A DNA stretch of 64,000 bases from Elusimicrobiales bacterium (GCA_028713125.1 JAQTOU010000003.1:467286-531285); one strand, 5' to 3'. Shown: positions 5,348 to 30,972, numbered from the stretch's first letter. Numbers and translations are program-made. The notes: generated by a model not told the origin, from the letters alone.

Positions 5348-5358
5348 GGCAGTTCTCC

Positions 5359-6974: not shown

Positions 6975-7012
6975 ATTCCGTATGAAAATAATTATTTTCA
7001 AATGAAAATATT
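6975..7012. promoter_or_regulatory. two-dyad upstream element, site A (putative enhancer-binding-protein UAS)
   Basis: Strong dyad TTTTCAAATGAAAA at 6995-7008. A weaker dyad (attccgTAtgaaaa) is centred 20 bp upstream. The strong dyad centre is 84.5 bp upstream of the GG of the 7085 promoter. Confidence 0.55.
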
Positions 7013-7084
7013 CTCCGCGTGCCTCCAGGGATAAAACAGAGATTTCTATATGAGAATTGCCTATTCCCTCCCTATTGCTGTCGT

Positions 7085-7100
7085 TGGCATAGAAAATGTT
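7085..7100 (+). promoter_or_regulatory. sigma-54-type -24/-12 promoter (degenerate -12: TGT)
   Basis: TGGCATAGAAAATGTT followed by ctgtag. GG-N10 spacing is exact but the -12 element is GT rather than GC. It lies about 50 nt upstream of the 7151 start. Confidence 0.55.
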
Positions 7101-7150
7101 CTGTAGAGAGTATCAGCGGGTAATATCTAAAATGGAAGGGTAAAGAACAT

Positions 7151-7855: not shown

Positions 7856-7921
7856 AGTTTGCTAGTATTCCGTGAGCCGGTATCCAATGCAACGGCTCAC
7901 GAAAATAATTTATAAAGTTTT

Positions 7922-8662
7922 ATGAATAGTGACTTTACCGATCTAAAATCTGTTTCGATCATGAACTGGGTGAAACTGTTTTTACTCTCAGTCGTGGCTG
8001 TTCTGGCATTGGGCTTCTTTTTGCGGTTATTTGGCCTAAGGTTGCTCTCAAAGGAGATGTTCGGGATATTAATCTCGGCATCATTTATCGCGGTCTCAAT
8101 AAAGGCCTTACACGATTTAGGCATAGATCCTAGACAAGCCTTCTTTTACCACAATAAGCATGTGCATGCGAGTTTTGCATCTGGACTCAGGTATTTCCTT
8201 GTTCTTCCCTGTTTTATTGTCGCGGTAGTGGCGCTGGTGGGTTCCGCCGACTTTTTATTGTCTTATTTTAACCTGATGCCCGTGGAGACGCTGACTAATT
8301 ATTTAATCCCGGGTTCTCTCGCTCAGACAAGTTATATAGGTGCAGTTCTGCTTGGCTCCACACAACGGATACTTGTGTTCATTATTGCCACATGCGTGCT
8401 TGCCCCGATAGCAGAAGAACTTTTTTTTAGGCGCTTATTATATGTCAGTTTGCGCAATAAATACAATTTCCATCTATCGCTGACGGTATCTTCTTTTATC
8501 TTCGGGGTTTTTCACGGGGGAGGCTGGTTCATAGCATTCGGGAACGGGCTGCTATTGGGCTATCTTTACGAAAAAAAGCACGATATTCTGGCGGCCATGT
8601 TCCTGCATTCATTTATAAATGTGCTTGCGATAATATTAGGTTTCGCCGCACTATGGGCATAA
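7922..8662 (+). CDS. CPBP family intramembrane glutamic endopeptidase (CAAX protease/Abi-like)
   Basis: 246 aa, multi-TM. Motifs are EELFFRRLLY (EExxxR), FIFGVFHG (FxxxH) and HSFINV. The start codon is uncertain (ATG 7922 or the Met at MNWVKLF). Confidence 0.8.
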   Translation: MNSDFTDLKSVSIMNWVKLFLLSVVAVLALGFFLRLFGLRLLSKEMFGILISASFIAVSIKALHDLGIDPRQAFFYHNKHVHASFASGLRYFLVLPCFIVAVVALVGSADFLLSYFNLMPVETLTNYLIPGSLAQTSYIGAVLLGSTQRILVFIIATCVLAPIAEELFFRRLLYVSLRNKYNFHLSLTVSSFIFGVFHGGGWFIAFGNGLLLGYLYEKKHDILAAMFLHSFINVLAIILGFAALWA

Positions 8663-8892
8663 GCCAAGGTTCAGAAAATTTAACTGCGGTAATGTGTAAA
8701 TACTGCCAACATGCTAAAGCCAGGATTGTTAGGACAAAATTCTTTGGAACTTCACCCGGTTATACAAACAAAAAAACCAGATGATCTATAAACTCAAAGA
8801 CTTAGAAAGATTGAGCACTAAATTGATGGTACAAGTGTTAAACAAATAAAACAATAATAGCCCTTGCGAAGATAGGGGATAATCAATAAACC

Positions 8893-10404
8893 ATGAAACT
8901 GCTTGTAAAAATAATCAGGACTGCGGGTCTCATTCTGTTCCTCATCCTCCTTCTGCTGGCCGGAGGAGGGTTTTACCTGCACCGGTCAGGGGTCATGAAC
9001 CTCAACGGGCTTAATTCGAAGCTGGCCGCGGAACTTTTTATGTCGGAGTATAATCCGTTCAGAGTAAAAAATCTTACTCTTAAGGAAGCCGCGCAGGACA
9101 CCGAAGAACTTTTCGCGAGTTTCGAACGGGTGCATCCGGATATTTCCGCGAATATAGGGAAGGCGGAATACGAGAGACTGAAGATCTGGACCGCGGAAGA
9201 GGTCGCAAAAAAAGCCGCTGGCGGAAAGATCAGCGTCAGGGATTTCGCCTATATCCTCTATCGCTCCGCCGCGGCCCTGGGCGACGGGCACACCCGGATC
9301 TACTGGCAATACCGCCCTGACGGGAAAAAGGGGGAAAGGCTTTTTCCTCCTTTCCTCGTGGATTGCCGGGGCGGGAAGTTTTTGATCGACTCAGTCAACC
9401 AGGGTCTCGCCGGATATGAGATCATCGCTGTTAACGGCAAGGATTTCCGGGCCTTTATAAAGCCGATACTGGATCGCATCCCCGCAGAGACAGCCGCCTA
9501 CAAAGGCCGCGGTTTCGCGCGGATGCAGGCTTTCTGGTGGGATTTTTCCCGCCTGCTGGACGGAGCGGGCGAACTCAAGCTGACGCTGCGCGGAAGCGAC
9601 GGGAAGAAAACCGAGAAGACCGTCGCCCCCATAACCCTGAATCAATTCACAAGCCTGGGGAGGACGTCCTCGTCCGGCGCTAACGGCCCGAACTCCGAGC
9701 TCCGGCTGTTCGAAAAAGAAAAGGTCGCCTGGCTGGAGTACCGGAACTTTATAGATTCAAAGGAGGAAGAGGCCGCCCTGGACAAGATCTTCAGGGAAAT
9801 AAAAGCCGGCGGGTTCAGGGACCTGGTGATAGACATCCGCCGCAACGGGGGCGGCAGCACTAATATCGGCAATTTTATCTTCAGCTACCTGACGGATAAA
9901 GAGTTCCAACAGGTCTCCAAACTGGTTCTTAAGGTCTCGCCGGAGGCGCTGGACATGAATTCCTACTATAAAAAATACAGCGATAAGATGGGGCAGAACG
10001 TGGACCTTCCCCGCCATCCCCAAAAGGCCGAGAAAAAGCCGGAGGTTTTCTTCGACGGCAAGGCGCGCCTGCTCATCGGCAACGACACTTTCTCCTCGGC
10101 CACGGCTTTTGCCGTCACCTTCAGAGATTATAAGCTGGGCGAGATCCTGGGGAATGAAACTGGCGGCGTGCCGGTCTGCTTCGGCGAAGCCCTGCCGATG
10201 AAGCTGCGGAACAGCGGCATCAAGTACAGCGTTTCCGATAAGCAATTCTTCAGCCCGAAACCGCGTCCCGGCGATGACAGGCACGGGGTGCTTCCGGATG
10301 TGGAGTTCACGGACGAACTGCTGCGCCCTTACCGCGGCGACACGCGAAGGTTCGTGATGGACCGGATAGAGCGCGACAGGAAGGCCAAGGCGGGGACGCT
10401 TTGA
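8893..10404 (+). CDS. S41 family peptidase (tail-specific protease-like), membrane-anchored
   Basis: 503 aa with an N-terminal TM segment. DLVIDIRRNGGGS and LLIGNDTFSSATAFAV blocks resemble the S41 catalytic-Ser region. Confidence 0.6.
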   Translation: MKLLVKIIRTAGLILFLILLLLAGGGFYLHRSGVMNLNGLNSKLAAELFMSEYNPFRVKNLTLKEAAQDTEELFASFERVHPDISANIGKAEYERLKIWTAEEVAKKAAGGKISVRDFAYILYRSAAALGDGHTRIYWQYRPDGKKGERLFPPFLVDCRGGKFLIDSVNQGLAGYEIIAVNGKDFRAFIKPILDRIPAETAAYKGRGFARMQAFWWDFSRLLDGAGELKLTLRGSDGKKTEKTVAPITLNQFTSLGRTSSSGANGPNSELRLFEKEKVAWLEYRNFIDSKEEEAALDKIFREIKAGGFRDLVIDIRRNGGGSTNIGNFIFSYLTDKEFQQVSKLVLKVSPEALDMNSYYKKYSDKMGQNVDLPRHPQKAEKKPEVFFDGKARLLIGNDTFSSATAFAVTFRDYKLGEILGNETGGVPVCFGEALPMKLRNSGIKYSVSDKQFFSPKPRPGDDRHGVLPDVEFTDELLRPYRGDTRRFVMDRIERDRKAKAGTL

Positions 10405-12450: not shown

Positions 12451-12561
12451 TATTTTTTATAGTGCCCGTATTCAATTAGCGAGAGGCCTAAGCCTTCGTG
12501 ATTTTAAGTAATATTCAGAGAAGACTCAAAAGCGCTACAATTTAGACTGATAGGTACAAAT

Positions 12562-13941
12562 ATGATCGAAAAAGATTTAAATAAGTACTCTAAATATTTT
12601 GACGGATATACGGAGTTGAGGCAGCAGATAAACATAAACACGAATATAGTCCTCTTAAACGGCAATTTAACAACAAATGACAAAGCGACTTTAGCCGGGG
12701 TTTCTGCGCGTGTTTATAGAAATGGGTACTGGGGCTTCGCCTCATTGCCGGGTATGAATGGCCCAAACGTAAAAGAAGCGCTTAAAAAGGCTACTAAGGG
12801 CGCAGTTTTTCTTTCCTCCCATGCGAAAAAAAGTTTTCCGCAGTTGCCCGTAGAGAAAACTTGCGGAAAGAATGACCTCTCTAGCGGGCGGCTGGGCGAG
12901 CCTGAAAAAAACATCGTGCAGTTTATGCGCGAGATTGACGCATATATAGCGTCAAAATATAAGAACGTGAAAAGCAGACGGTTCTGGTTCACAGAGCATG
13001 ATGTTGAGAAGCATCTTATCACCTCAGATGGCTCAGACTACTATTCACATATCCCGATCCACAGGATGATCCTTTTTCTGACTTACGAAAAGGAAGGGAA
13101 TTGCGCAGATATCTACAGGATGTCCGGCGGTTGCGGGCATTCAGGGGGTATCTACTCATCCATTTCTGAATATTGTGCGATGGTGGATGAAACGACGGAG
13201 CATTTAGCACGGAAAAGTGAAGGGGTTTTTGCTGACTCGGGGCTTAAAGATTGCGTGCTATCGAGCAGTCTGACCGGGATCCTCGCACATGAAGCCATCG
13301 GTCATACCACAGAGGCGGACCTGGTAATGGGCGGGTCCGTTGCCTCGGGACTGCTTAATTGCCAAGCAGGCAGCCGGTTGATAACTCTTGTGGATTTCGC
13401 CAACACCGCTTGCGGCGAGAGATGCCCTGTTCCCGTTTATGTGGATGATGAAGGGACCAAGGCAGAAGACGTTGTAATCATTGAAAATGGGACTTTGAAA
13501 GCTTATATGCATGATAAGCAGTCCTCTCTGCATTACGGGGCGAAGCCAACTGGAAACGCCCGGGCGGGTACTTTTGCCGATGAGCCTCTTGTAAGGATGC
13601 GCAATACCGCTATTCTTCCCGGTAAGGATAAGCTTGATGACATGATCGCTTCCATAAAAGACGGGTATTTTCTCATGGAAAACGGTAACGGGCAGGCTGA
13701 CCTTACCAGTGAATTCATGTTCGCGGTTCAAATGGGGTATGAAATAAAAAATGGAAAGCTTGGCCGCGCCATCAAAGATACTTCGGTTTCCGGTCTCGCG
13801 TATGATGTGCTTAAAAGTGCGGATATGGTGTCGGACTCGCTACGGTGGCGCCACGGCGGAATGTGCGGCAAAGTGCAACCAATATTCGCCGCGGTGGGCG
13901 GACCTGCGATAAAATGCAAAATTCATGTTGGGGGGAGATAA
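12562..13941 (+). CDS. tldD: TldD family metalloprotease
   Basis: 459 aa. HExxxH is in LAHEAIGHTTEADL. The C-terminal GMCGK and GGPAIK blocks are typical of the TldD/PmbA fold. The region is low GC. Confidence 0.8.
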   Translation: MIEKDLNKYSKYFDGYTELRQQININTNIVLLNGNLTTNDKATLAGVSARVYRNGYWGFASLPGMNGPNVKEALKKATKGAVFLSSHAKKSFPQLPVEKTCGKNDLSSGRLGEPEKNIVQFMREIDAYIASKYKNVKSRRFWFTEHDVEKHLITSDGSDYYSHIPIHRMILFLTYEKEGNCADIYRMSGGCGHSGGIYSSISEYCAMVDETTEHLARKSEGVFADSGLKDCVLSSSLTGILAHEAIGHTTEADLVMGGSVASGLLNCQAGSRLITLVDFANTACGERCPVPVYVDDEGTKAEDVVIIENGTLKAYMHDKQSSLHYGAKPTGNARAGTFADEPLVRMRNTAILPGKDKLDDMIASIKDGYFLMENGNGQADLTSEFMFAVQMGYEIKNGKLGRAIKDTSVSGLAYDVLKSADMVSDSLRWRHGGMCGKVQPIFAAVGGPAIKCKIHVGGR

Positions 13942-13942
13942 A

Positions 13943-15238
13943 ATGACCGGACATGATATTGTCGAAGGATGCCTAAATTGCCTTAAAAAAGAAGGCGCGC
14001 AAAAAGCGCAGGTCACATTAACGGAAACTGAGAAAACAGGATTGGCTATTGAGAACAGACGGATATTCCTGCTGCGTGATTCAGTGGACCTAAAATTGGA
14101 TTTAGCCGCGATATCGGCTGACAGATATGCCTCGCTTTCTCTCAATAACCTTGAGGCAGGGGGGGTGGAAGCCGCAGCGCGGCAAACTCTGGAAAATACG
14201 CTGAAATCGCCCCAGGACACCACATATGATATTGCCCCATTTCAGGCCCCGGAGAATTTTGATAACAATGTTCTATCTCCGGACATGGAATTGCTGTATA
14301 GGCGATTTGAAGAGTTTTTGCTGGATTGTGAAAAACACCCTTCTCTAACGCTTCGTCGGATGACAAGACTGGATTTCTTCTCGGAGAAAAAGATTCTCAC
14401 GAATTCTAACGGTACGAATTTTTCCAGTCGTGTAGGATTTTATGAATTCAACGCCATTTTTTCGTCGCGGGAAGGTGGAAAGAATTCATTGGGATATTTT
14501 ACGACACTGCGCGCCAAAAATCTTGACCGTCCGCTAGTCAAATGGGGAATGCTGGAAACTTTGCTTGAGCAGTCCGCCGAATCCATAAATACACGGTCGG
14601 TCAGCGGCAAATTTGTCGGTGATATTGTTGTCGCTCCCGAGTGTCTAAGCGATTTCTTGAGTTTTATGACCGAGAGCGCTCTGCGCGACAATATGCTGAT
14701 ATCCGGCACGAGCTTGTATAAAGACAGCGTGGGTAAGCTAATAGCCGGCGCCGGGTTTACGCTAAGCTCAGAGCCTCTTTCTCCAGAGATGGCGGCAGGA
14801 TATTTTATAACTCCTGACGGCCGTAAGGCCAGAGACCTTCCGATAATTGAAAATGGCGTGCTTAAAACGTTTATTCTTAGCCAATATGGTTCACGCAAAA
14901 CGGGTTTGCCACTGGTTTTAAATGCCGGCGGCTGTTATTCTGTAGCGCCCGGAAATACGGACTATAAGGCTCTCATTAAATCGATAGCAAGGGGATTGTT
15001 GGTCACCAGATTTTCAGGTGGGAAACCAAGTCAGAACGGGGATTTTTCTGGTGTCGTGAAAAACAGTTTTTATATTGAGAACGGTGAATTGAAATTCCCC
15101 GTAGCAGAAACCATGATAGCTGGCAACATCCCTCTGATGTTTATGAATATTAACGGGATCTCGAAAGAACGTGTTAATTTCGGGAATGCTATACATCCCT
15201 GGATTTCTTTTTCGGGTGTAACAATTTCCGGGAAATAG
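13943..15238 (+). CDS. pmbA: PmbA/TldE family protein (TldD partner)
   Basis: 431 aa from ATG 13943, with GGGGGAG 6 nt upstream and 1 nt after the tldD stop. The track start at 13925 is in the same frame. TldD/PmbA-family C-terminal blocks are present (SGGKPSQNGDFSGVVKNSFYIENGE). Confidence 0.7.
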   Translation: MTGHDIVEGCLNCLKKEGAQKAQVTLTETEKTGLAIENRRIFLLRDSVDLKLDLAAISADRYASLSLNNLEAGGVEAAARQTLENTLKSPQDTTYDIAPFQAPENFDNNVLSPDMELLYRRFEEFLLDCEKHPSLTLRRMTRLDFFSEKKILTNSNGTNFSSRVGFYEFNAIFSSREGGKNSLGYFTTLRAKNLDRPLVKWGMLETLLEQSAESINTRSVSGKFVGDIVVAPECLSDFLSFMTESALRDNMLISGTSLYKDSVGKLIAGAGFTLSSEPLSPEMAAGYFITPDGRKARDLPIIENGVLKTFILSQYGSRKTGLPLVLNAGGCYSVAPGNTDYKALIKSIARGLLVTRFSGGKPSQNGDFSGVVKNSFYIENGELKFPVAETMIAGNIPLMFMNINGISKERVNFGNAIHPWISFSGVTISGK

Positions 15239-15387
15239 CAGATATGAGGCCGGGCCTATGCCGGCATAGGTCCAAGGACCCTTCCACGCCCAAAACCTAT
15301 CAGCTAGACTATTGTTGTAGTGATTCCTTGTAATTTGGGGGATTGGCCCCAGAGTATCCACGATCCGACCTTAATCGGATGTATCCA

Positions 15388-15422
15388 GGGAAAGCAAAAA
15401 GACACTTTGCTTTCCCTTTTTT
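15388..15422 (+). terminator. strong intrinsic terminator about 150 nt downstream of pmbA
   Basis: gggaaagcaaa (15388-15398) / tttgctttccc (15406-15416), followed by tttttt. Confidence 0.7.
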
Positions 15423-15484
15423 ATTAAGCAGGTTGCATAAAAATCGTAAAAATGGCAAAATATAGGGGTTGAGGGGAGAATAAA

Positions 15485-15682
15485 ATGAAAAATAATGATA
15501 AGATTTTGATTGCTTTCCTGGTTTCAGTCGGTCTATTTTCTTTTTGCCAGGCAAAGCAGTATGTAAATAACCTTTCCGATACAGAGAAGAAGGCCTTAGT
15601 CCCTGCAACCAAAGTGTCTCTTGATAAGGCTTTGGTTTCCACTGACCCGTATGAGGTCCATGAAATAAAGTACGGGGCCTAA
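15485..15682 (+). CDS. small secreted peptide (65 aa)
   Basis: GAGGGGAG RBS 5 nt upstream. Sec-type signal MKNNDKILIAFLVSVGLFSFCQA, then a 42-aa Cys-free hydrophilic part KQYVNNLSDTEKKALVPATKVSLDKALVSTDPYEVHEIKYGA. Confidence 0.55.
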   Translation: MKNNDKILIAFLVSVGLFSFCQAKQYVNNLSDTEKKALVPATKVSLDKALVSTDPYEVHEIKYGA

Positions 15683-15704
15683 ATAGTTTTAGGTAGAACT
15701 TGTG

Positions 15705-15743
15705 ACCGGACAGTACAATACTTCTTGTACTGTCCGGTTTTTT
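15705..15743 (+). terminator. intrinsic terminator/attenuator between the small peptide gene and the radical SAM gene
   Basis: Perfect 14-bp stem accggacagtacaa (15705-15718) / ttgtactgtccggt (15725-15738), followed by ttttt. The radical SAM ATG is 11 nt later. Confidence 0.8.
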
Positions 15744-15753
15744 ACAGCACGCT

Positions 15754-16629
15754 ATGGCGAATAAAAAATTTAAATTGTGTATCCTTCCAGGATATCGATG
15801 CAATTTCGCTTGTGCCCATTGTTCTGCCACACTAAAAACACCTCAAAGATTGGCAGATTCCGAGATCCAATCCATCTTGGCTGCGATAAAGGCCTACAGT
15901 GTAACATCCCTGCACTTTGTTGGCGGCGAACCTACCTTGTATATAGCGGACATTAACCGGATTCTCTCCGGGCTTGCTAGCCTGAAGCACACTAAAGTTA
16001 GAATTACTACTAATGGGCACTTCGGAGCGACAAAAAAATCTGCAAAAGCTGTTTTGGCCTCACTATTAAAATTAGACTATCTGCAGCTGTCTTATGACAA
16101 ATTCCATCGGGAGTTCCTTCCATTCAAAAACATACGTACACTTTACAATGTATGTTTGGAGGCGGGGGTGGAATTCAGCGTTGCAATAAGCATTCAGTCC
16201 CCTCTGGATCTGGTTCTGGCTCCGCAGTTAAAGAAAATAGGTGATTTTCCTATCGGCGTTTTAAAGGTTATGCCAGCGGGATCAGCTAGGGAAAATAATC
16301 TGGCTTATCGTTATCCAAGCTTTGACAAGAGGGTGCTGTCTAAAAAATGTCCAAATCATAAAACAATTACATATATGTGTGGTGAGGGGTTCACAAGTTG
16401 TTGTTCGTTGCTAAGTTTCGGCGAGGGCTCCGCGCGTTTTGCCCATCCGACCATGAGAGCCCACCTGAATAGTGATTTCTATAAACTAATTTCAAGACAT
16501 TCTTTCGGGGAGATAATGCGAATGTCGGGGGTGGCATCAACCCCGTTAAGTCCCGATCATTCTTCTCCATGCACTTTATGCGCGCATCTGTTCAAACTCG
16601 GGCCTGTCCGGAATATCGCAGGTATATGA
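15754..16629 (+). CDS. radical SAM protein with an extra C-terminal Cys cluster
   Basis: 291 aa. CxxxCxxC is in GYRCNFACAHCSA. SLHFVGGEPTL is the SAM-binding GGE block. C-terminal cysteines are KKCPNHKTITYMCGEGFTSCC and PCTLCAHLF. Confidence 0.75.
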   Translation: MANKKFKLCILPGYRCNFACAHCSATLKTPQRLADSEIQSILAAIKAYSVTSLHFVGGEPTLYIADINRILSGLASLKHTKVRITTNGHFGATKKSAKAVLASLLKLDYLQLSYDKFHREFLPFKNIRTLYNVCLEAGVEFSVAISIQSPLDLVLAPQLKKIGDFPIGVLKVMPAGSARENNLAYRYPSFDKRVLSKKCPNHKTITYMCGEGFTSCCSLLSFGEGSARFAHPTMRAHLNSDFYKLISRHSFGEIMRMSGVASTPLSPDHSSPCTLCAHLFKLGPVRNIAGI

Positions 16630-18032
16630 TGGGTGGCCGATACTTAAAGGTCTTGCTGCTTTTCTTTGCATGCAACTCGTCTATTGGATGTAACACTCCA
16701 CGCAATACTGATACCTGGGAGGTGCTGCTTGGCGCTATCCCCAAAAGTATTTCCATAAAAGACGCCGAGCAAACTATCACTTACTATATTCTCAGGCAAA
16801 CCCATGAACCCCTGTTCAGGCAGGATGACGGGTCTAGTTATAAATCCAAATTGCTGACAAGCTGGTCAAGGAACATATCCTCTTCGGAGTATATGTTCTG
16901 TCCCGACACTTCGCGCATGTTTGATAAAGATGTAGGGTTTACTGCTGATTTCTTCTATGAGTACCTGCGAAATGTGGCCGGTAAATATGATCCCAACTAT
17001 AAGCTATTAAAACAAGGCGAGTGTGTAGCGGTAAAATTCACTAAACCGCAGTCGCATTTTCTGGCTTTTCTTTCCCGCTATGAAAACGCCCCGACTATTA
17101 TTAAATCCTCGGAGGTGGAGAGCGGTTTGGGGCCCTTTTATGTCCAGAGTCTTTCGCAAAGTGAGGCAGTTCTTGTGCGGAAAAAGCGGGTAGCCAATGG
17201 CTATAATAAAATAATCGTTCATGCCTATACCGGTCCCGGAGACCCTAATCTCGAAAACAGAAATATCGCGGACTTTAACAGGATATCTTCATACTCCCAG
17301 CCAGAATGGATTAAAAACGAATACTTGGGATTCAATAATCTGGAGTTGAAATCTGTGAACGTAATAATTAACCACCCGGACAGAGAAATACGGAGTATGC
17401 TCTATAATTGCATTGATGTCGGGGAATTCCGGGAAGCTTTCTCTCCGCAGCGCAAAGAATTTCATGATATTCAGACGCTTTTGCCTATTGGTTTTTTCGG
17501 CTCAAAGCCGGGGAAAGCTTTCCAGCAATGCCAGTTCCCAAAGGGACCATCCCGTAAAACTGCTCCTTCATTTGTGCTGCTAAACCAGCAGAAGGATAAT
17601 AGTCAGCAACTTCAGATCTTCATTAAAGGGTTTTATAAAAAAACAGGTATAAAAATATTGACTATACAGCCTCCGGGGCAGGAAGTAGTAGAAATGCTGC
17701 ATCGCCGTCCTCATGGATATAACCTTGCTGTCGTTGTAATGGGTACGCAGAACTGGGATTACGGGACGGTATTTAAATATTATGCAGGCAACTCAGCGTA
17801 TTATGATAAGGTCCCTAAAGAAGCGGAGAATATTTATAAAAAGTTGGTTGAGGCACCCGAGGACGAAAAGCCGGCGTTCGCAGTTCAATTAGCCGACGAA
17901 TTGGTTAAGCAATCAATAGTCCTGACGCTTTATCAAACATCTGTGAAGCTTTATTACCCCAAGTTCATAAAAAACTTTGTGATAGGCCGGGGTTTTCTTG
18001 AAACTCCTGAGGTCGGTGACTTCCGATGGTAA
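16626..18032 (+). CDS. family-5 (peptide/nickel-type) extracytoplasmic substrate-binding protein, lipoprotein-like
   Basis: I prefer the start at ATG 16626 (ATGA overlap with the radical SAM stop). MMGGRYLKVLLLFFACNSSIGC is a lipobox-like signal. THEPLFRQDDGSSYKSKLLTSWS...FTADFF resembles the SBP_bac_5 N-terminal block. Confidence 0.6.
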   Translation: MMGGRYLKVLLLFFACNSSIGCNTPRNTDTWEVLLGAIPKSISIKDAEQTITYYILRQTHEPLFRQDDGSSYKSKLLTSWSRNISSSEYMFCPDTSRMFDKDVGFTADFFYEYLRNVAGKYDPNYKLLKQGECVAVKFTKPQSHFLAFLSRYENAPTIIKSSEVESGLGPFYVQSLSQSEAVLVRKKRVANGYNKIIVHAYTGPGDPNLENRNIADFNRISSYSQPEWIKNEYLGFNNLELKSVNVIINHPDREIRSMLYNCIDVGEFREAFSPQRKEFHDIQTLLPIGFFGSKPGKAFQQCQFPKGPSRKTAPSFVLLNQQKDNSQQLQIFIKGFYKKTGIKILTIQPPGQEVVEMLHRRPHGYNLAVVVMGTQNWDYGTVFKYYAGNSAYYDKVPKEAENIYKKLVEAPEDEKPAFAVQLADELVKQSIVLTLYQTSVKLYYPKFIKNFVIGRGFLETPEVGDFRW

Positions 18033-19705
18033 AAATTTTAAGCAGAGCGCTTTCGTATAACTGGAAATATTATGCCGCGGCGGTAGCGGTGTTCGTGGCT
18101 TTCTGGCAGATGTTCTCAATCTTCTCTTCCACGCGGGTGGCTGATGATAAGTTGTTGACGGCCATGCGTCAGAATGCGGATTATTTTGAGAAGGCTTTTC
18201 TTGAGGGGGATGTTTTTGAAACGCAGCGCATAATGTGGCGCATCAAGAATGACAATATAAAGCGGATAACTTTTCATCCTGTTGCGTTCGAGGGGTCGAA
18301 GTGGATATTTAAAGAGGCTATAGTCGGGAATCTCTACGACCGGCCGCGGGCGCAGCTTAACCGCAATGTGCCTTTCATTTCAAACGGCGCGGAATTAGGC
18401 CGGCTGGAATACGTTATCGATCTTGTGGATGTGAACTCGGCTGTTTTTGGGGAGAACTATGTCTTGTTCATAACCGTGGTGTTCTTTTTCATGGGACTGC
18501 TTGTGCTTTCAAATGTCGGGGCGATAAAAACTATTTTCAGCATAGAGCGCTGCGTGGATGAGACCAATGCGCTGGCGACCGCGGGCGAACATTCTAAAAT
18601 ACAGGATTCCATACAGCGCAGCATCCAGTCCCTGCCGGAAAGCCTGCGCGCTACTCCTTTTGCCGTGCTTATAGGCCGCCTTGCCGATGTGCTTCATAAG
18701 GCTTCACGCCTGGAGAGCGAGCTGGCTGTTTCAAAGGCCACTTCCGACCTGGCCGCGCAGGTGGCGCATGATATCAGGTCGCCGCTGGCCGCTCTGGGCG
18801 CCGCCGCCAAAGGCCTGGAGATGCCTGAGGACCAGCGCAAGCTGGTGGAAGGCGCCGTGGGCCGTATGCAGGGAATTGCGGATGACCTGCTGCAGCGTTA
18901 CCGCGCGCCTTCAGCAACGCATGCCGAGCCCAAACCGGCGGTTTGTGCGCTTGGCGGGCTTATAGAGCAGGTGCTTTCTGAAAAACGACTTCAGCATAAA
19001 GATAAGACCGGGGTTAAGATAGAGTTCAATGGCGCCTCCGGAGAGATCAAAGCCCTGGTCGAACCGAAAGAACTTCAGCGGCTGCTGTCCAACCTTGTTA
19101 ATAATTCCGTAGAAGCTTTTGACAAGAACGGCACAGTTGCAGTTTCCCTGTCGGGAGTAGACGGCAAAGTTTTGATAGAAGTGAAGGACAACGGCAAAGG
19201 CATCCCGGCGGATATCCTTTCGAAGCTCGGCCAGAAGGGGGAGACGCACGGAAAAACCGGCGGTAACGGACTCGGCCTTTACCATGCGCGCACTACAGTA
19301 GAGGCCTGGGGCGGCTCCTTCAAAATTAAATCAGAGCCGGGCAAAGGCACAGCCGTGCTGATAGAGCTTCCGCGTCCCGCCGCTCCGGTCGGACGTATGG
19401 TAGTCCTCCTGGACGATGATATGCTTGTGCATATGAACTGGAAACTGGCCGCGAAAGCCGCCGGGGTGGAACTGAAGGCTTATAAGACCAAAGAAGATTT
19501 TGCGGCAGGTATTGAAAGCCTGTCTAAAGACGTCCCTATCTATATAGATTCCGATTTGGGTAATAACGTTAAAGGCGAGGACATAGCCAAAGAGCTGAAT
19601 AATAAAGGCTTTACCAATCTCACCATGGCCACCGGCCACGGCGCGGATAAATTCTCCCACCTCCCTTGGCTCAAAGTAACCGGGAAAGAACCGCCTTGGG
19701 GCTAG
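18026..19705 (+). CDS. hybrid sensor histidine kinase (2-TM periplasmic sensor, HisKA, HATPase_c, C-terminal receiver)
   Basis: 559 aa. Overlaps the SBP gene by 7 nt. H-box AQVAHDIRSPLAAL, N-box LLSNLVNNSVEAF, G-boxes VKDNGKGIP and GGNGLGLY. The receiver shows VVLLDDD...IYIDSDLG...MATGH...GKEPP. Confidence 0.85.
   Translation: MVKILSRALSYNWKYYAAAVAVFVAFWQMFSIFSSTRVADDKLLTAMRQNADYFEKAFLEGDVFETQRIMWRIKNDNIKRITFHPVAFEGSKWIFKEAIVGNLYDRPRAQLNRNVPFISNGAELGRLEYVIDLVDVNSAVFGENYVLFITVVFFFMGLLVLSNVGAIKTIFSIERCVDETNALATAGEHSKIQDSIQRSIQSLPESLRATPFAVLIGRLADVLHKASRLESELAVSKATSDLAAQVAHDIRSPLAALGAAAKGLEMPEDQRKLVEGAVGRMQGIADDLLQRYRAPSATHAEPKPAVCALGGLIEQVLSEKRLQHKDKTGVKIEFNGASGEIKALVEPKELQRLLSNLVNNSVEAFDKNGTVAVSLSGVDGKVLIEVKDNGKGIPADILSKLGQKGETHGKTGGNGLGLYHARTTVEAWGGSFKIKSEPGKGTAVLIELPRPAAPVGRMVVLLDDDMLVHMNWKLAAKAAGVELKAYKTKEDFAAGIESLSKDVPIYIDSDLGNNVKGEDIAKELNNKGFTNLTMATGHGADKFSHLPWLKVTGKEPPWG
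18755..19705 (+). repeat. transmitter-receiver module, copy 1 (paralogous to 23653-24600)
   Basis: Nucleotide alignment by eye with 23653-24600 shows long identical runs, e.g. gtggcgcatgatatcaggtcgccgct and ggagatgcctgaggaccagcgcaa. Most codons are conserved. The 5' sensor parts are unrelated. Confidence 0.8.
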
Positions 19706-19726: not shown

Positions 19727-19756
19727 ACGGGCCCAGATGGGCCCGTTTTCTTTTCA
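19727..19756 (+). terminator. intrinsic terminator of the kinase operon
   Basis: acgggccc-agat-gggcccgt followed by tttcttttc. The U-tract runs into the first half-site of UAS site B. Confidence 0.75.
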
Positions 19757-19784
19757 AATGAAAATAAATATTTTCATTTGAGCA
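19751..19784. promoter_or_regulatory. two-dyad upstream element, site B
   Basis: TTTTCAAATGAAAA (19751-19764) and TTTTCATTTGAGCA (19771-19784), centres 20 bp apart. The order of the AA-centred and TT-centred dyads is swapped relative to sites C and D. The nearest sigma-54 promoters are about 570-600 bp away at 20329-20375. Confidence 0.5.
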
Positions 19785-19885
19785 TCTTTTGGGGTAGCCG
19801 GAAATTTGGCCGGACCCGCGCGGCCAGGCGGAATGGGGGAGGGCGGCAGTCCAATTGACTGCCGCCCCAGGCCCGGCCGGATAGT

Positions 19886-20278
19886 TTAATTCTCCCCTGA
19901 GCCGCCGCAGGCGTTGCAGGGGAAGTAGGCGTCGATACTCCCGCTTCCGCCGCAAAAATTGCACTCGTTGCTGCCGGCGCCGCCGCAGGAGCCGCAGGTC
20001 TGGTTCCCGCTGCCGCCGCAGAGATTGCAGGTCTGGGCCTCGCCGTAAACGGTCACGCTGCCTCCGCCTCCGCATTGGCCGCAGGTGTACTCGCCGTTGC
20101 CGCGGCAGTTCGAGCAGCGCTGCTGGCCGCCGCTGCAGGCGCCGCATTCATGCGACAGGTGGGTTTGCCCTGTTCCCCGGCAGGTTCTACACTCGCCCCT
20201 GGAAAGCGCTTCACTCTGAGCCACCCCGCTGATATTTATTGCGAACACTATAGCGATAATCAATTTTATCTTTTTCAT
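19886..20278 (-). CDS. secreted protein made of eight DnaJ-type CxxCxGxG zinc-finger motifs
   Basis: 130 aa with an AAGGAG RBS. Signal MKKIKLIIAIVFAINISGVAQ. The eight motifs are CRTCRGTG, CGACSGGQ, CSNCRGNG, CGQCGGGG, CNLCGGSG, CGSCGGAG, CNFCGGSG and CNACGGSG. Confidence 0.75.
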   Translation of the reverse strand: MKKIKLIIAIVFAINISGVAQSEALSRGECRTCRGTGQTHLSHECGACSGGQQRCSNCRGNGEYTCGQCGGGGSVTVYGEAQTCNLCGGSGNQTCGSCGGAGSNECNFCGGSGSIDAYFPCNACGGSGEN

Positions 20279-20328
20279 AATTCTCCTTGAGTTCCCATCA
20301 TCTGCAGAATGTGTTGTGAGCTCTGCGG

Positions 20329-20344
20329 AGCAATTGTTATGCCA
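20329..20344 (-). promoter_or_regulatory. sigma-54-type -24/-12 promoter (minus strand)
   Basis: The reverse complement reads TGGCATAACAATTGCT followed by ccgcag. GG-N10-GC spacing is exact. It lies about 50 nt upstream of the 20278 start. Confidence 0.7.
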
Positions 20345-20359
20345 AGGTCGGTTAAGCTA

Positions 20360-20375
20360 TGGCATTAAAATTGCT
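20360..20375 (+). promoter_or_regulatory. sigma-54-type -24/-12 promoter
   Basis: TGGCATTAAAATTGCT followed by ctgtag. GG-N10-GC spacing is exact. It lies about 40 nt upstream of the 20416 start and only 15 bp from the divergent promoter. Confidence 0.75.
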
Positions 20376-20415
20376 CTGTAGTCGGTGACGGGCTTGCAAA
20401 CTTTAGGAGGATAAA

Positions 20416-21081
20416 ATGAAAAAGCTGATAATAGTAGTTACCTTACTGGGGATCGCGGCGGCGCAGGTTAAAGCGCAGGATGTCGCGGGACAGTCCGGGC
20501 AGGCGGGCGCGGCCGACGCCGTATACGCCAGGGTTGTGGATGCCGAAGCTATGTCCTGGGCCTGGCGCATCGAGAGAGCTAAAGACATGAGTTATCAGAA
20601 CCTGGTGAAAGTGTCAGCCAACTGGGGCCGCGGCGAGGCCGTGCGCGGCCAGCTGCTTGCGAAGGTAAAGGAAATTGTTAATAAAGGACAGCTGCGCCGC
20701 CTGACCACCAGGGAAGATTCCGAGCTCGACGCCGCCAAGGCCGAGGCTCGCTCTATCCTTTCAGGCAGCCGGGCCCGCTCTGAAAGATCCTCCGGCCGGC
20801 GCGCGCCGAGGCAGAGCGCCATCGACGGGACCGCGCGCGAGATCCTGGAGGTCGAGGCGAAGTATTGGGCCTGGCGCATAGCCGTGGTCCGCAATATCAC
20901 CTACAATGAGCTGAAGGGCCATTCCGAGGGGTGGATGCGCGGGGTTGAGGTCAGCGATGAACTGCTGGCGAAAATAAGAATAAAACTCCAGTCCGGCGAG
21001 AACCAGGGGCTGAGCGGGGACGAACAGGCAAAGTTCGACGCTGGAAATAAAAAGATCAAACAGCTCCTCTCCCGCGCGTAA
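20416..21081 (+). CDS. secreted hypothetical protein with a two-fold internal repeat
   Basis: 221 aa with an AGGAGG RBS. Signal MKKLIIVVTLLGIAAAQVKA. Repeat units are AEAMSWAWRIERAKDMSYQNLVKVSANWGRGEAVRGQLLAKVKE and VEAKYWAWRIAVVRNITYNELKGHSEGWMRGVEVSDELLAKIRI. Confidence 0.6.
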   Translation: MKKLIIVVTLLGIAAAQVKAQDVAGQSGQAGAADAVYARVVDAEAMSWAWRIERAKDMSYQNLVKVSANWGRGEAVRGQLLAKVKEIVNKGQLRRLTTREDSELDAAKAEARSILSGSRARSERSSGRRAPRQSAIDGTAREILEVEAKYWAWRIAVVRNITYNELKGHSEGWMRGVEVSDELLAKIRIKLQSGENQGLSGDEQAKFDAGNKKIKQLLSRA

Positions 21082-21152
21082 ACCCGGGCGCGCGGCAGCC
21101 GGGAGACGGCAGCCGCGCAGTTTTCACTAAATGGTATATTGTGAGGATTAAT

Positions 21153-21956
21153 ATGAAACTTCTCTGTCTTATGCTGCTGCTGGCTTCCCCTGCTCTGGCT
21201 GATGAGGAGGAGGAACACCCGTATTTCTCTCCGGAGGAGGTACAGACCCTGGAGCCGGAGCGCTGTAAGGGCATGGTGGAGATCCCGGCCGGTCCTTTTA
21301 CTTTCGGGGATTCTTATGCCGCAGCCGGCAGGCGCACGCCGCCGGCTTTCAAGCATTTGATAAAGCCTGTCACCACAAAAACCACCGGCGCCTTCCTGAT
21401 GGACAAATGCGAAGTGACTCAGTTGCAGCAAGAAGCAGTATGGCTGATGGGGCGCGGTAAAACCGGCGACAAGCTGGACCTGAAGCAACCGAATGGAGAT
21501 CACCCCATGTTCGGGGCTAGGAAAGAATTCGCGGAGCTGTTCTGCAAGTACCTGGGCAAGCGCCTGCCCACCGAAGAGGAATGGGAGAAGGCCGCCCGCG
21601 GCGGAACCTCCACGGTATATTACTGGGGCGACGACTATAGGGATTCCAATACGTACGAGCAAAGCCCCCGGAAATACAATATGTCGGTCCCTACCGGATC
21701 TGTCGCCGAGAAAGCCCCTAACCAGTATGGGCTTTACGACATGCTCGGTAACGTGCCGGAAATGACCTCCGGCGAGTGCTGGAAAGGCGGCTCGATGATG
21801 CTTTATAGTGAATATTATGCTTCTGTCGGGCGCTGCGCGAAGGCGCCGGAGAAGGGCTGGGCGCATAGCTATGGCTGGCGCTGCGTCCGGGATATAGTTA
21901 AGCCTGTGGAGGGCGACGGGAATCAGAGCCAGGCGCAGGGAGAGGAAGTCCGGTAG
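21153..21956 (+). CDS. formylglycine-generating enzyme (FGE-sulfatase/SUMF1) family protein, secreted
   Basis: I prefer the start at ATG 21153 (GAGGA RBS; signal MKLLCLMLLLASPALA). LPTEEEWEKAARGG, NQYGLYDMLGNVPEMT and GWRCVRD blocks are typical of the FGE fold. Confidence 0.75.
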   Translation: MKLLCLMLLLASPALADEEEEHPYFSPEEVQTLEPERCKGMVEIPAGPFTFGDSYAAAGRRTPPAFKHLIKPVTTKTTGAFLMDKCEVTQLQQEAVWLMGRGKTGDKLDLKQPNGDHPMFGARKEFAELFCKYLGKRLPTEEEWEKAARGGTSTVYYWGDDYRDSNTYEQSPRKYNMSVPTGSVAEKAPNQYGLYDMLGNVPEMTSGECWKGGSMMLYSEYYASVGRCAKAPEKGWAHSYGWRCVRDIVKPVEGDGNQSQAQGEEVR

Positions 21957-22003
21957 CCGAGGCAAAGAGGCGCCCTGGGCGCAGCGGGCTAACTCGAAAT
22001 AAC

Positions 22004-22035
22004 AAAAAGCGGGCAATAGGCCCGCTTTTTCTTTT
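22004..22035 (+). terminator. intrinsic terminator
   Basis: agcgggc-aatag-gcccgct followed by ttttctttt. The U-tract runs into UAS site C. Confidence 0.7.
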
Positions 22036-22065
22036 CATTTGATAAGAACTATTTTCAAACGAAAA
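22032..22065. promoter_or_regulatory. two-dyad upstream element, site C
   Basis: TTTTCATTTGATAA (22032-22045) and TTTTCAAACGAAAA (22052-22065), centres 20 bp apart. The proximal centre is 84.5 bp upstream of the GG at 22143. Confidence 0.55.
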
Positions 22066-29443: not shown

Positions 29444-29626
29444 TCAGGCTTTATCTATCTGGGCGAGTATCTTGATTATTTCCGCGGCGGCGGCGTTCAT
29501 CAGGGCCAGCATCTCTTTCTTCTCGACCGCCGAGCAATCCTTGTAAAGTTCCGCGGCGCTTTTGAGGCTGGAGCACTTGGACCGCAAGTCGTGCAGAAGC
29601 TTGCTGCTGTCTGGCGTAGTGGTCAT
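29444..29626 (-). CDS. 60-aa helical protein with an Hpt-like His motif (candidate phosphotransfer protein)
   Basis: ATGA start/stop overlap with the upstream enhancer-binding protein gene (29626-29623). MTTTPDSSKLLHDLRSKCSSLKSAAELYKD... resembles the Hpt motif H-x-L-K/R-G/S-S-x-x-x-L/G. Confidence 0.45.
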   Translation of the reverse strand: MTTTPDSSKLLHDLRSKCSSLKSAAELYKDCSAVEKKEMLALMNAAAAEIIKILAQIDKA

Positions 29627-30972
29627 TTCTTTTCTCCCTCCGGTTCTATCCCCAGCTTCTTCAGGGTCGAATATAAAAGCCTTGTCGAAATTTTAAGGTC
29701 GGCCATTGTTTTGGTCTTCTTGCCCTCGTTCTCACGCAGGTTCCTCGTGATTATTTCGCCGGAAACTTTATCCAGCGCGGCCTCGAGGCCGTTCGCCATA
29801 GCGTAGGCGTAAAGCCCGCCGTCACCGGCGGAGGCGGGCTGCGCCGCTTCCCGCCCTTTAAGATGCTTCGCGACGGTGTTTATATCCACCCGGCCTTCCG
29901 AGCCGCTCGAGACCAGGTCCACGAACTTCTTGAGCTCGCGCACATTTCCGGTCCAGGAGTAAGTCTCCATATAAGCCCTCGCTTCCGGGGTGAAAGACAG
30001 TCTCCGGCGGCCGCTGGTGAAGTGCTGCACCAGGGGGGCTATGTCGCAGGCCCGGCGCGAGAGCGGCTTGAGGTTTATAGTGTAGCCGTGCACGCGCTGG
30101 AAAAGGTCGAAGCGCATTTTGCCCTGGGCGATCAGCGTCTGCGGGTCTTCAAGCGTCGCGCTTATGATGCGGAACTCGGAATGCTCCGGCTTTTCAGAGC
30201 CGAGCGGGTAGAAAGAGCGCTCCTCTATGGCCTTCAGCAGCTTCATCTGCATTCCAAGGCTCATCGTGCCTATCTCGTCGAGGAAAAGAGTTCCCTTATG
30301 CGCTTCCAGGAGACGGCCTTTGCGGGTTTCGTGGGCCCCGGTGAAAGCGCCTTTTTTATGGCCGAACATTTCGGCCTCGAGCAGGTCCTCGGTATAAGCC
30401 GAGCAGTTTATCGAGACGAAAGCGCCTTCGCGGCCTGAATGTTCGTGGAGTATCTTGGCCAGCGAGGTTTTCCCGGTGCCCGACGGCCCGAGTATAAGGA
30501 TCGGCAGCTCGGTTGGCGCGTATTTCAGGGCTTCGGAAGCGGCGGCTTTGGTTTCCGGGTCGCAGGTGATGAAGGCCGAGGAAAAAATATCTTTTGCGCC
30601 GGCGGCTTTCCTGTTCTGTATGAACTTGCGCAGGATGTCGGCCACATTCGATTCTTCGTTTCCTTTCGCGTAAAAATCATTTGCGCCAAGCGCGTAGGCC
30701 CGGTCGATAGTCTCGTCCGAGTCGGAGCTGGATACCACGACGCAAAAAACGCCTCTCGCCGCCGCGGCGGCTATCGCTTTAAGGCCGGAGTAATCGTCGT
30801 CCGGGCCGAGCATCAGGTCGAAGAAGCCGATATCGTATTTCACGCTTTCGATCTTCTTGAGCGCCGTTTTCAGGTCCCCGGCCAGGTCGATATTATGTCC
30901 CGCCAGATGCGCGGACATGACCTTCTGCGCCAGTTTATCGTCTTCCAGAACCAGTATATTGAGTTTTTCCAT
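29623..30972 (-). CDS. sigma-54-dependent response regulator (NtrC-family bacterial enhancer-binding protein)
   Basis: 449 aa. Receiver domain (ILVLEDD...FFDLML...). AAA+ domain with Walker A GPSGTGKTS, the GAFTGA loop (HKKGAFTGAHE) and LFLDEIG. C-terminal Fis-type HTH (KTKTMADLKISTRLLYSTLKKLGI). Confidence 0.9.
   Translation of the reverse strand: MEKLNILVLEDDKLAQKVMSAHLAGHNIDLAGDLKTALKKIESVKYDIGFFDLMLGPDDDYSGLKAIAAAAARGVFCVVVSSSDSDETIDRAYALGANDFYAKGNEESNVADILRKFIQNRKAAGAKDIFSSAFITCDPETKAAASEALKYAPTELPILILGPSGTGKTSLAKILHEHSGREGAFVSINCSAYTEDLLEAEMFGHKKGAFTGAHETRKGRLLEAHKGTLFLDEIGTMSLGMQMKLLKAIEERSFYPLGSEKPEHSEFRIISATLEDPQTLIAQGKMRFDLFQRVHGYTINLKPLSRRACDIAPLVQHFTSGRRRLSFTPEARAYMETYSWTGNVRELKKFVDLVSSGSEGRVDINTVAKHLKGREAAQPASAGDGGLYAYAMANGLEAALDKVSGEIITRNLRENEGKKTKTMADLKISTRLLYSTLKKLGIEPEGEKK

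Follow-up and report, generated by a model that had tools for sequence, protein, structure and literature searches.

A 2'-dG-II riboswitch heads a candidate peptide signal-and-sensor cassette in an Elusimicrobiales genome

Here, we analysed a stretch of 64,000 nucleotides from an Elusimicrobiales bacterium (GCA_028713125.1, JAQTOU010000003.1:467286-531285; hereafter 'the window', to which all positions refer), in particular a patch at 12451-19705 that encodes a TldD/PmbA pair, a 65-aa peptide, a radical S-adenosylmethionine (rSAM) enzyme, a substrate-binding protein (SBP) and a hybrid histidine kinase. In an initial annotation, made from the sequence alone, these genes had been read as a possible producer-and-sensor module for a modified peptide that feeds a sigma-54 circuit. 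That annotation overlooked a riboswitch of the 2'-deoxyguanosine (2'-dG)-II class, which heads the cassette and is part of the system. Our comparative analysis suggests that the patch represents one allele of a riboswitch-gated peptide signal-and-sensor cassette that is modular and exchanged horizontally, a reading to which we give a probability of roughly 0.55; its specific chemistry and its sigma-54 output are less certain than the reading as a whole. The components are each of a known kind and their assembly is absent from the searchable literature. If true, the reading would amount to a new design for bacterial peptide communication, in which a ribosomal signal is modified by an rSAM enzyme, specificity resides in a swappable binding lipoprotein and the kinase is conserved, with many alleles and several copies per genome in an uncultured phylum.

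Results and discussion

The sole Rfam match above threshold in the window is a 2'-dG-II aptamer (RF03165), which covers the full model (positions 1-71 of 71) with 85.6 bits (gathering score 60, E = 4.5e-23) and was the best match in the purine-clan competition, in which a lower-scoring clan match was removed. A search of the 64-kb window for additional copies of the riboswitch or for another cassette found none. In an alignment of the aptamer from 25 loci, 92.8% of the cells were paired and nine pairs varied on both sides, with four both-side changes in P2 and four in P3; the observed pairing was reached by none of 500 shuffles, while slid controls gave 25-63%. The noncoding DNA at 15266-15564 is 75-83% identical between loci whose proteins share only about 40-50%, and the aligned upstream DNA displays clear compensatory changes. 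Members of the class are defined by the first-shell residues U22, C51 and C74(78), a 2-nt insertion in J3/1 and a G-C pair where P1 meets the junction (PMC6847200). Read off the Rfam alignment with a position mapping of our own, the class junction features are present in the window aptamer: J1/2 is UAA, J2/3 is GUAUCCACG (CC), J3/1 is GUAUC (5 nt, C last) and P1 is closed by G8-C64. The selectivity for 2'-dG versus guanosine varies widely among class members (PMC6847200).

The aptamer runs into an intrinsic terminator whose 5' arm (AGGGAAAGC...) doubles as the 3' strand of P1 (AGGGAAA), and pairing within this terminator reaches 99.6% across the 25 loci. In the ligand-free minimum-energy fold, P2, P3 and the terminator form, but P1 does not. 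Since P1 and the terminator share a strand and are mutually exclusive, we predict an ON switch, in which the ligand permits read-through; that the window aptamer binds its ligand and controls transcription is likewise predicted, from its class and from the overlap of P1 with the terminator. Control of transcription termination has been described for the class and is consistent with the present locus (PMC12342879). In genome loci with enough upstream sequence, the aptamer core lies 64-102 nt before the start codon in 24 of 28 peptide genes.

Two promoter-like elements accompany the riboswitch. The first lies upstream: a shared motif (GGCCC..GGCCC..CCCTTnC, about 19 nt, TAnACTAT) precedes nearly all aptamers whatever gene follows (107 distinct upstream regions), which suggests that its counterpart at 15252-15312 is a candidate common promoter or operator of the riboswitch-led set. 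The second, a TTGCAT-CAAAAT element, is kept in most loci (loci are numbered with an L), including the aptamer-less L005, and is missing in the aptamer-bearing L001. A consensus promoter scan did not call this element at 15433-15461, which is possibly a second, sigma-70-like and riboswitch-independent promoter. An inspection by eye for a sigma-54 promoter (GG-N10-GC) upstream of riboswitch and peptide gene gave no convincing match.

A scan of one genome per species yielded 35 loci, against which the window proteins were then compared by tblastn. About 28 genome loci show the order peptide, rSAM, SBP and kinase, and so do metagenome contigs, with more than 40 loci in all, mostly from Elusimicrobia; the rSAM-SBP-kinase trio of the initial annotation is therefore syntenic elsewhere, with a homologous small peptide gene in front. 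Contigs with rSAM homologs carry a 62-72-aa open reading frame (ORF), the rSAM gene, sometimes an extra gene, and genes for a protein of about 470 aa and a kinase of about 560 aa. Two or three copies occur in several genomes: UBA9634, for example, has three (L008, L015, L029), and L012 and L030 carry two each. The rSAM-SBP pair is also found in Oligoflexia, Bdellovibrionaceae, Silvanigrella and Halobacteriovorax, with the kinase only in the last.

Among 26 distinct complete cassettes, the pairwise identities of rSAM and SBP were correlated (Spearman rho 0.47, p = 2e-19), whereas neither followed the identity of the kinase (rho -0.03 for rSAM and -0.18 for SBP). Median identities were 0.44 for rSAM, 0.40 for SBP and 0.71 for the kinase. 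In eleven pairs, kinases of 85% identity or more go with rSAMs that share 39-45% and SBPs that share 34-41%, while L011 and L014 are 87% identical in both rSAM and SBP and only 70% in the kinase. Judged by these comparisons, peptide, rSAM and SBP appear to vary together and to be decoupled from the conserved kinase, as at pherotype loci. In the comQXPA pherotypes of Bacillus and the staphylococcal agr groups, signal precursor, maturase and receptor diversify together beside a conserved signalling part. The present cassettes share with these systems a co-diversifying block flanked by recombination breakpoints and a conserved downstream transducer. They differ in that the receptor is a separate periplasmic binding lipoprotein instead of the membrane domain of the kinase, the kinase sensor is the most conserved part, the maturase is an rSAM enzyme, control is exerted by a riboswitch and the hosts belong to a diderm, uncultured phylum. 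This kind of co-variation is the strongest argument that the SBP recognises the peptide of its own cassette.

The patch also stands out by its composition. GC content is 0.451 across 12451-18030 versus 0.576 for the remaining window, windowed GC falls from 0.55-0.60 to 0.43-0.50 between about 12000 and 18000, and the 5.58-kb stretch with the minimum GC in the 64 kb begins at 12501 (0.450; sliding mean 0.565, standard deviation 0.045). The A/T-rich patch noted earlier by eye did not vanish on calculation. At third codon positions (GC3), values are 0.52 for TldD, 0.46 for PmbA, 0.46 for the peptide, 0.43 for rSAM and 0.47 for the binding protein, compared to 0.60 for the kinase and 0.69-0.75 for flanking genes. 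One could take the patch for a recent foreign insertion whose genes are linked by co-transfer alone. Such an origin would fit a GC3 that lies 0.2-0.3 under that of the flanks, and it would fit the comparison with L005, a close relative of the window organism, in which DNA homology ends near 17907: identity is 84.5% from 17907 through the kinase and 91.8% across 19748-22065, there is none upstream of 17907, and this breakpoint falls on the patch's right edge. On the left side of the patch (edge at about 12451), the MacB/S41 flank was found in no related locus compared. We nevertheless consider a recent insertion very improbable. As already annotated, no mobility gene lies in the patch, of which every sizeable ORF is accounted for; the gene order with its overlapping reading frames is kept across many genomes; and in 27 of 29 loci the GC content of the rSAM-to-SBP block lies below that of its flanks (mean difference 8 points; Wilcoxon p = 2e-8), while the kinase is in line with the flanks (p = 0.37). 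Because the block falls below its flanks in nearly all loci, low GC is a trait of the whole cassette family, as in other often-exchanged polymorphic loci, and not the mark of a single recent insertion.

In view of the family-wide low GC of the rSAM-to-SBP block, we reject a one-off horizontal island. The GC pattern instead seems to indicate repeated allele exchange at a fixed locus, and the riboswitch/leader region on one side and the SBP 3' end and kinase on the other could provide the homology arms. Read in this way, the local low GC would be explained as a family-wide mark of allele exchange, not as a mobile island. Gene order, overlaps and terminator of the initial annotation are all present on the + strand, and the coordinates of the features are given in Table 1.

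Table 1 Features of the cassette and of its candidate output partners, in window coordinates.
Feature	Position	Strand	Basis or remarks
TldD-like metalloprotease, 459 aa, accessory	12562..13941	+	Pfam PmbA_TldD_1st/2nd/3rd; HEAIGH at aa 243
PmbA/TldE-like partner, 437 aa	13925..15238	+	Pfam PmbA_TldD_3rd, E 5.6e-45; no HExxxH; overlaps tldD by 17 nt
Conserved upstream element, candidate promoter or operator	15252..15312	+	GGGCC..N..TAGGYCC..AAGGRCCCTTCC, about 19 nt, TAGACTAT (15305-15312)
2'-dG-II aptamer (P1, P2, P3), purine family	15323..15393	+	Rfam RF03165
Expression platform, intrinsic terminator	15387..15425	+	Terminator scan; hairpin 15387-15417, then T run
TTGCAT-17 nt-CAAAAT element with TG extension	15433..15461	+	Alignment; between riboswitch terminator and ribosome-binding site
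Precursor peptide, 65 aa	15485..15682	+	53 distinct homologs, each directly upstream of an rSAM gene
Terminator or attenuator after the peptide gene	15704..15745	+	Fold
rSAM enzyme, 291 aa, distant YydG/EpeE-like peptide maturase	15754..16629	+	Pfam Radical_SAM; NCBIfam; PDB profile
Lipoprotein-type family-5 (cluster C) SBP, 468 aa, presumed peptide receptor	16626..18032	+	AlphaFold2 fold
Hybrid histidine kinase, 559 aa	18026..19705	+	Pfam, hydropathy, AlphaFold2 and Foldseek
NtrC-type response regulator (receiver and sigma-54 activator)	29623..30972	-	Pfam
Short RpoN-like protein, 351 aa	31154..32209	+	Pfam Sigma54_DBD, E 4.5e-17; only the sigma-54 DNA-binding domain detected

A housekeeping rSAM enzyme would have spoken against a peptide module, and classification by profile placed the window enzyme elsewhere. 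Its top NCBIfam match is YydG (TIGR04078) with 61.3 bits, which does not reach the equivalog cutoff of 300. A profile of 31 homologs matched YydG/EpeE (8ai1) best in the PDB (E = 4e-25, positions 6-285 to residues 29-326), and the runner-up, MoaA (2e-9), was matched over the N-terminal half only. Invariant cysteines are C16, C20 and C23 (CX3CX2C) as well as C199, C216, C217, C273 and C276; the C216/C217 pair aligns with the PCC of EpeE (C222/C223), and the C-terminal cysteines align, too. In EpeE, C223 quenches the peptidyl C-alpha radical (PMC13012085). The full-length match to EpeE, together with the cysteines, assigns the enzyme to a peptide-maturase lineage related to YydG/EpeE, although not as a YydG equivalog. 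By analogy, its chemistry is most likely an L-to-D epimerisation with abstraction of the C-alpha hydrogen and re-donation of a hydrogen from Cys217. About 100 unnamed homologs exist, nearly all in metagenome-assembled genomes of Elusimicrobia; this YydG/EpeE-like subfamily with its 53 distinct presumed natural substrates should be useful for the enzymology of ribosomally synthesised peptides with post-translational modifications (RiPPs).

No Pfam or NCBIfam model matches the 65-aa peptide. Its leader (MKNNDKILIAFLVSVGLFSFCQA|KQYVNNLSDTEKKAL) is conserved and resembles a signal peptide, and its C-terminal core (..VSTDPYEVHEIKYGA) is hypervariable; among the 53 distinct homologs, alignment columns score 0.5-0.8 for conservation at positions 1-35 and 0.2-0.4 at positions 46-65. 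The conserved leader of about 45 residues reads M-x-x-K-D-K-(I/V)-(I/L)-x-A-F-L-V-S-x-G-(L/I/V)-F-S-x-x-Q-A-x-Q-Y-V-x-x-L-S-x-x-x-K-x-x-L, and the peptide genes lie -7 to 197 nt upstream of rSAM. The locus shows the pattern of a RiPP precursor with its maturase, i.e. a conserved leader, a variable core and, presumably acting on them, a neighbouring maturase. By inspection, the Elusimicrobia leader is Sec-like: its n-region is charged and is followed by about 14 hydrophobic residues and by x-Q-A. The motif persists in Bdellovibrionota and deltaproteobacterial homologs, in which it makes a poor signal peptide, and in L035 it is internal, behind a separate signal. Since it is not signal-like in Bdellovibrionota, we treat the leader as the element that the maturase would recognise. 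Many sister cores contain one Cys in a 'hydrophobic-C-(E/S)-G' motif, often together with a weakly GNAT-like extra gene; the cores of TldD/PmbA-bearing cassettes, including that of the window, are mostly Cys-free.

The initial annotation had the peptide gene closed by a perfect 14-bp terminator, and both the ORF and the hairpin were confirmed, the latter by folding: the 14-bp core (15705-15718 / 15725-15738) is followed by a U run (dG -28.1 kcal/mol, z -5.3). The consensus terminator scan missed this hairpin, probably because a G-U extension of the stem shortens the T tail. Among the related loci with an intergenic gap, about half have similar hairpins with T runs.

The cassette resembles the EpeXEPAB (YydFGHIJ) system of Bacillus subtilis in that a small precursor gene sits directly upstream of a two-cluster YydG/EpeE-type rSAM gene, the CX3CX2C motif, the C-terminal cysteines and the CC pair are kept and a protease is associated. 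In contrast to that system, homology is only distant, the leader is unrelated and signal-peptide-like, the EpeP-type membrane protease and the EpeAB transporter are missing, with TldD/PmbA instead in a subset, and the operon encodes a binding protein and a kinase under riboswitch control. But, could the peptide be an antimicrobial or cannibalism-type epipeptide like EPE/YydF of B. subtilis, with the SBP sequestering the peptide and so mainly conferring immunity, and the kinase serving, as in lantibiotic systems, autoinduction or the response to stress? Among characterised enzymes, the nearest relative of the rSAM enzyme is reported to make a membrane-active toxin (PMC7026026). Toxin-immunity loci are also hypervariable, GC-poor and horizontally exchanged, toxin and immunity would co-diversify, and peptidases, a CPBP/Rce1-like protease and ABC exporters are found nearby in the window. 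We regard a toxin as unlikely, however, given that the genes conserved with the cassette include no dedicated exporter and no ABC transporter for immunity (MacB-like matches are sporadic), that the SBP invariably comes with a kinase whose start overlaps its gene and that sister cassettes devoid of a maturase still keep peptide, SBP and kinase; moreover, the core encoded in the window is short, acidic and not amphipathic. MacB itself was considered as a dedicated exporter or core part and ruled out, as it is not conserved with the cassette.

The 468-aa protein, annotated before as a family-5 binding lipoprotein, matched no Pfam or NCBIfam model at E <= 0.01, PF00496 included; this model was found in 4 of 85 homologs, and the profile matches NikA/OppA weakly (E = 1.6e-4). 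Yet the predicted fold bears the assignment out. In the AlphaFold2 model built with 39 homologs (pLDDT 88), the top 50 listed Foldseek matches against the PDB were all of family-5 type (DppA, OppA, NikA, CntA, Aapf; E of about 1e-23 to 1e-20, TM 0.53-0.73), and a lipobox-like ..IGC lies at a conserved GC site. ABC permease or ATPase partners were looked for: no Opp/Dpp-type permease occurs in the cassette in any locus, and the kinase is the only gene after the SBP. Both gene overlaps reported before were confirmed, the SBP start being the ATG of an ATGA overlap with the rSAM stop (16626-16629) and the SBP and kinase genes overlapping by 7 nt (ATGGTAA); the latter two genes abut or overlap in most loci. 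The SBP is most variable at about residues 280-400, and its C-terminal tail is conserved.

The kinase comprises transmembrane helices at about 15-35 and 145-171 that enclose a periplasmic domain of about 110 aa, followed by HisKA (Pfam E = 2e-7; H-box HDIRSPL at H248), HATPase_c (6e-24) and a C-terminal receiver. Its periplasmic part is the most conserved (0.81-0.92). For the last 105 or so residues, the Pfam receiver match is sub-threshold (E = 0.04), and a PDB profile search with the C-terminus gave nothing significant (weak receiver match, E = 0.53). However, the receiver residues D12/D13/D14, D57, T85 and K103 are conserved, and the model (pLDDT 80) resembles the receivers of FixJ, YycF, PhoP and ArcA in Foldseek (TM 0.65-0.74). 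Due to the invariant DD/D/T/K residues and the predicted CheY-like receiver fold, the earlier label of a hybrid kinase appears justified. In LuxP-LuxQ and TorT-TorS, periplasmic binding proteins of other SBP clusters recognise AI-2 and TMAO, respectively. As in these systems, the binding protein is encoded beside a membrane hybrid kinase that has a periplasmic domain and through which it presumably acts; unlike in these systems, it belongs to family 5, and a peptide encoded by the cassette itself, probably modified, is the candidate ligand.

SBP and kinase might instead sense an external ligand, such as oligopeptides, opine-like compounds or metallophores, with peptide and rSAM being a separate function that shares the operon and the riboswitch. 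We consider this improbable, as peptide, rSAM and SBP co-vary as a unit and a small peptide gene stands before SBP and kinase in every inspected cassette type (L113, L128, L142, L073, L104, L152). What speaks for it is the great diversity of family-5 ligands, with NikA, CntA and Aapf among the top fold matches, and a kinase sensor domain that is conserved whatever the type of peptide.

Two more kinases of the window, at 22886-24616 (+) and 38820-41411 (-), have the DHp, catalytic and receiver part in common with the cassette kinase (the first is 62% identical across aa 96-558, the second 45-59%) and differ in their N-terminal sensors; neither adjoins a peptide, rSAM or SBP gene.

The TldD/PmbA pair had been counted as part of the cassette. 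It is present, with HExxxH in TldD only, but it is optional and accompanies a subset of cassettes. Both proteins score far under the NCBIfam equivalog cutoffs (237.8 versus 635 bits for TldD and 75.8 versus 438 for PmbA) and are therefore divergent members. The pair lies upstream of the cassette in the window, L001, L010, L019 and L023, between SBP and kinase in L021, L114, L125 and L149, and in L018 downstream of a neighbouring rSAM gene, before the next peptide gene. On these grounds, TldD/PmbA are linked accessories and not core parts. TldD and TldE (PmbA) are known to process microcin B17. Similar to that case, a TldD with HExxxH and a PmbA partner adjoin a ribosomal peptide and a maturase; in contrast to it, the pair in the window is divergent and optional in the family, and its position relative to the riboswitch varies.

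Concerning the proposed sigma-54 circuit, NtrC-type and RpoN-like genes do recur near the cassettes, and proximity is the sole basis of the link. NtrC-type homologs lie at most 10 kb from the cassette in L001, L003/L004, L009, L010, L012, L013, L015, L027 and L028, and an RpoN-like gene is co-located with the NtrC-type gene in L001, L003/L004, L009, L010, L012 and L028. The NtrC-type regulator is a candidate output partner of the kinase. The NtrC/RpoN-like pair of the window is divergently transcribed and is 78-83% identical to the pairs by the L001 and L003 cassettes; some six other loci have such a pair as well.

Taken together, these features would be compatible with the following course of events. 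A promoter upstream of 15320 would transcribe the riboswitch, with the terminator at 15387-15425 forming unless the ligand is bound. Bound 2'-deoxyguanosine (or guanosine) would stabilise P1 and sequester the 5' arm of the terminator, so that transcription enters the cassette. The 65-aa precursor would be made first and abundantly, as the hairpin behind its gene would lower downstream expression. The YydG/EpeE-like rSAM enzyme might then modify the hypervariable core of about 20 residues, most likely by epimerisation, before the leader is removed and the peptide is exported, either by Sec and signal peptidase with cleavage at ..CQA|K, by TldD/PmbA trimming, or both. In the periplasm, the binding lipoprotein would capture the mature peptide and signal via the highly conserved periplasmic domain to the translationally coupled hybrid kinase, the output of which probably reaches the nearby NtrC-type regulator and the RpoN-like factor. 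From the comparisons, we infer the peptide as substrate of the rSAM enzyme, its export route, its binding by the SBP, the coupling of SBP and kinase and the ligand in vivo.

Several observations weigh against this course of events. The promoter-like element between the riboswitch terminator and the peptide gene could bypass the switch. The chemistry of the rSAM enzyme may differ from that of YydG, as its score is far below the cutoff (61 versus 300 bits), and the single-Cys motif of many sister peptides hints at other reactions. TldD and PmbA are cytoplasmic in E. coli, and the Sec-like leader would be awkward to reconcile with cytoplasmic modification by the rSAM enzyme and trimming by TldD/PmbA. 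A conserved periplasmic domain of the kinase beside a variable SBP fits a docking surface, but it would also fit other sensing, and the operon itself encodes no response regulator. What stands of the producer-and-sensor module proposed initially is the part that comparison supports, with a composition shift that is real, a trio that recurs in other genomes and a maturase outside the housekeeping families; TldD/PmbA turned out to be optional, and the sigma-54 circuit is tied to the module by proximity only.

The riboswitch itself is not confined to cassettes with this peptide. The aptamer-core pattern matched at least 120 metagenome stretches, and in a 16-locus sample 16 of 16 aptamers were RF03165 with 77-86 bits. 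Among the matches listed, 112 had enough downstream sequence, and in 26 of these the riboswitch is followed by the present peptide family. Many other listed matches head cassettes of the same plan with different parts, i.e. a different small secreted peptide, a YcaO-like protein, another rSAM or nothing in the place of the maturase, a Pfam-significant SBP_bac_5 protein and a kinase from the family of the present one (e.g. L142, L073, L128, L113, L152, L144, L104 and L071). YcaO-like maturases stand behind the riboswitch in L104, L071 and L128, rSAM enzymes of 341-345 aa in L144 and L152 and a 454-aa rSAM-like ORF in L059, L068 and L082, while in L113 two small peptide genes lie in tandem and a maturase is missing. 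The remaining listed matches mostly precede genes whose secreted products measure 200-300 aa, among them homologs of the window gene at 7151-7855.

The original discovery of the 2'-dG-II class is said to have been published by Weinberg et al. (2017, PNAS). For the class, 12 metagenomic reads or examples with no assignable host lineage were given (PMC5473149), it was described as metagenomic only, with few downstream genes (PMC5473149, PMC8872408), and the structure of its member env1 is available (PMC6847200). In the searchable literature, we found no paper that ties the 2'-dG-II riboswitch, or rSAM-dependent RiPPs, to Elusimicrobia and none that connects the riboswitch with the cassettes described here. 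The window aptamer agrees with the class in its fit to the full model above the gathering score, its junction features and its predicted control by termination; it departs from the published picture in that it occurs in Elusimicrobia-type genomes and heads cassettes of peptide, maturase, SBP and kinase as well as genes for secreted proteins. The 'signal receiver domain' reported for the class may correspond to the C-terminus of the cassette kinase. We tentatively suggest, although we hold it to be somewhat doubtful, that Elusimicrobia and some neighbours possess a large 2'-dG-II regulon, composed mainly of interchangeable pherotype cassettes (a small peptide, an optional maturase of the YydG-like rSAM, other rSAM or YcaO-like type, a family-5 SBP and one conserved hybrid kinase family), in which peptide signalling is licensed by an intracellular deoxynucleoside cue. 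Such a cue might arise e.g. from DNA breakdown or uptake. If true, this would be the first coherent biological role for the 2'-dG-II class and a new type of peptide signalling with its specificity in the periplasmic binding protein, not in the kinase. A rare, structurally studied riboswitch class would gain a host and a probable regulon, and its biology would become testable.

Two further observations concern the distribution of riboswitch and cassette. A second low-GC patch at 7001-9000 of the window (GC 0.43-0.46, GC3 0.49-0.50) harbours, at 7151-7855, a gene whose 234-aa secreted product contains Cys in its C-terminal region and, at 7922-8662, a gene for a CPBP/Rce1-like membrane protease. 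Homologs of the 234-aa protein (e.g. in L079) lie directly behind 2'-dG-II riboswitches in metagenome contigs, and the window copy has no detectable aptamer. At L036:4344-5399, we came across a decaying cassette, in which other sequence stands in place of the aptamer's 5' half and only two fragments of the rSAM are matched (query 8-149 and 226-281); its binding protein and kinase are intact.

Neighbouring genes

Downstream of the cassette kinase, a gene at 21141-21956 encodes a secreted protein with an FGE-sulfatase (formylglycine-generating enzyme-like) domain, which occupies the same position in L005 (94%) and in L031. A pair of M16 peptidases at 3941-6897 (-) recurs near cassettes and near the NtrC/RpoN-like pair (L001, L012, L018, L023, L028) and could be another peptide-processing activity. 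At 25446-28535, a 471-aa radical SAM/SPASM protein with an N-terminal extension is followed by an ABC ATPase and an ABC-2 permease, an arrangement that looks like a separate RiPP-type cluster.

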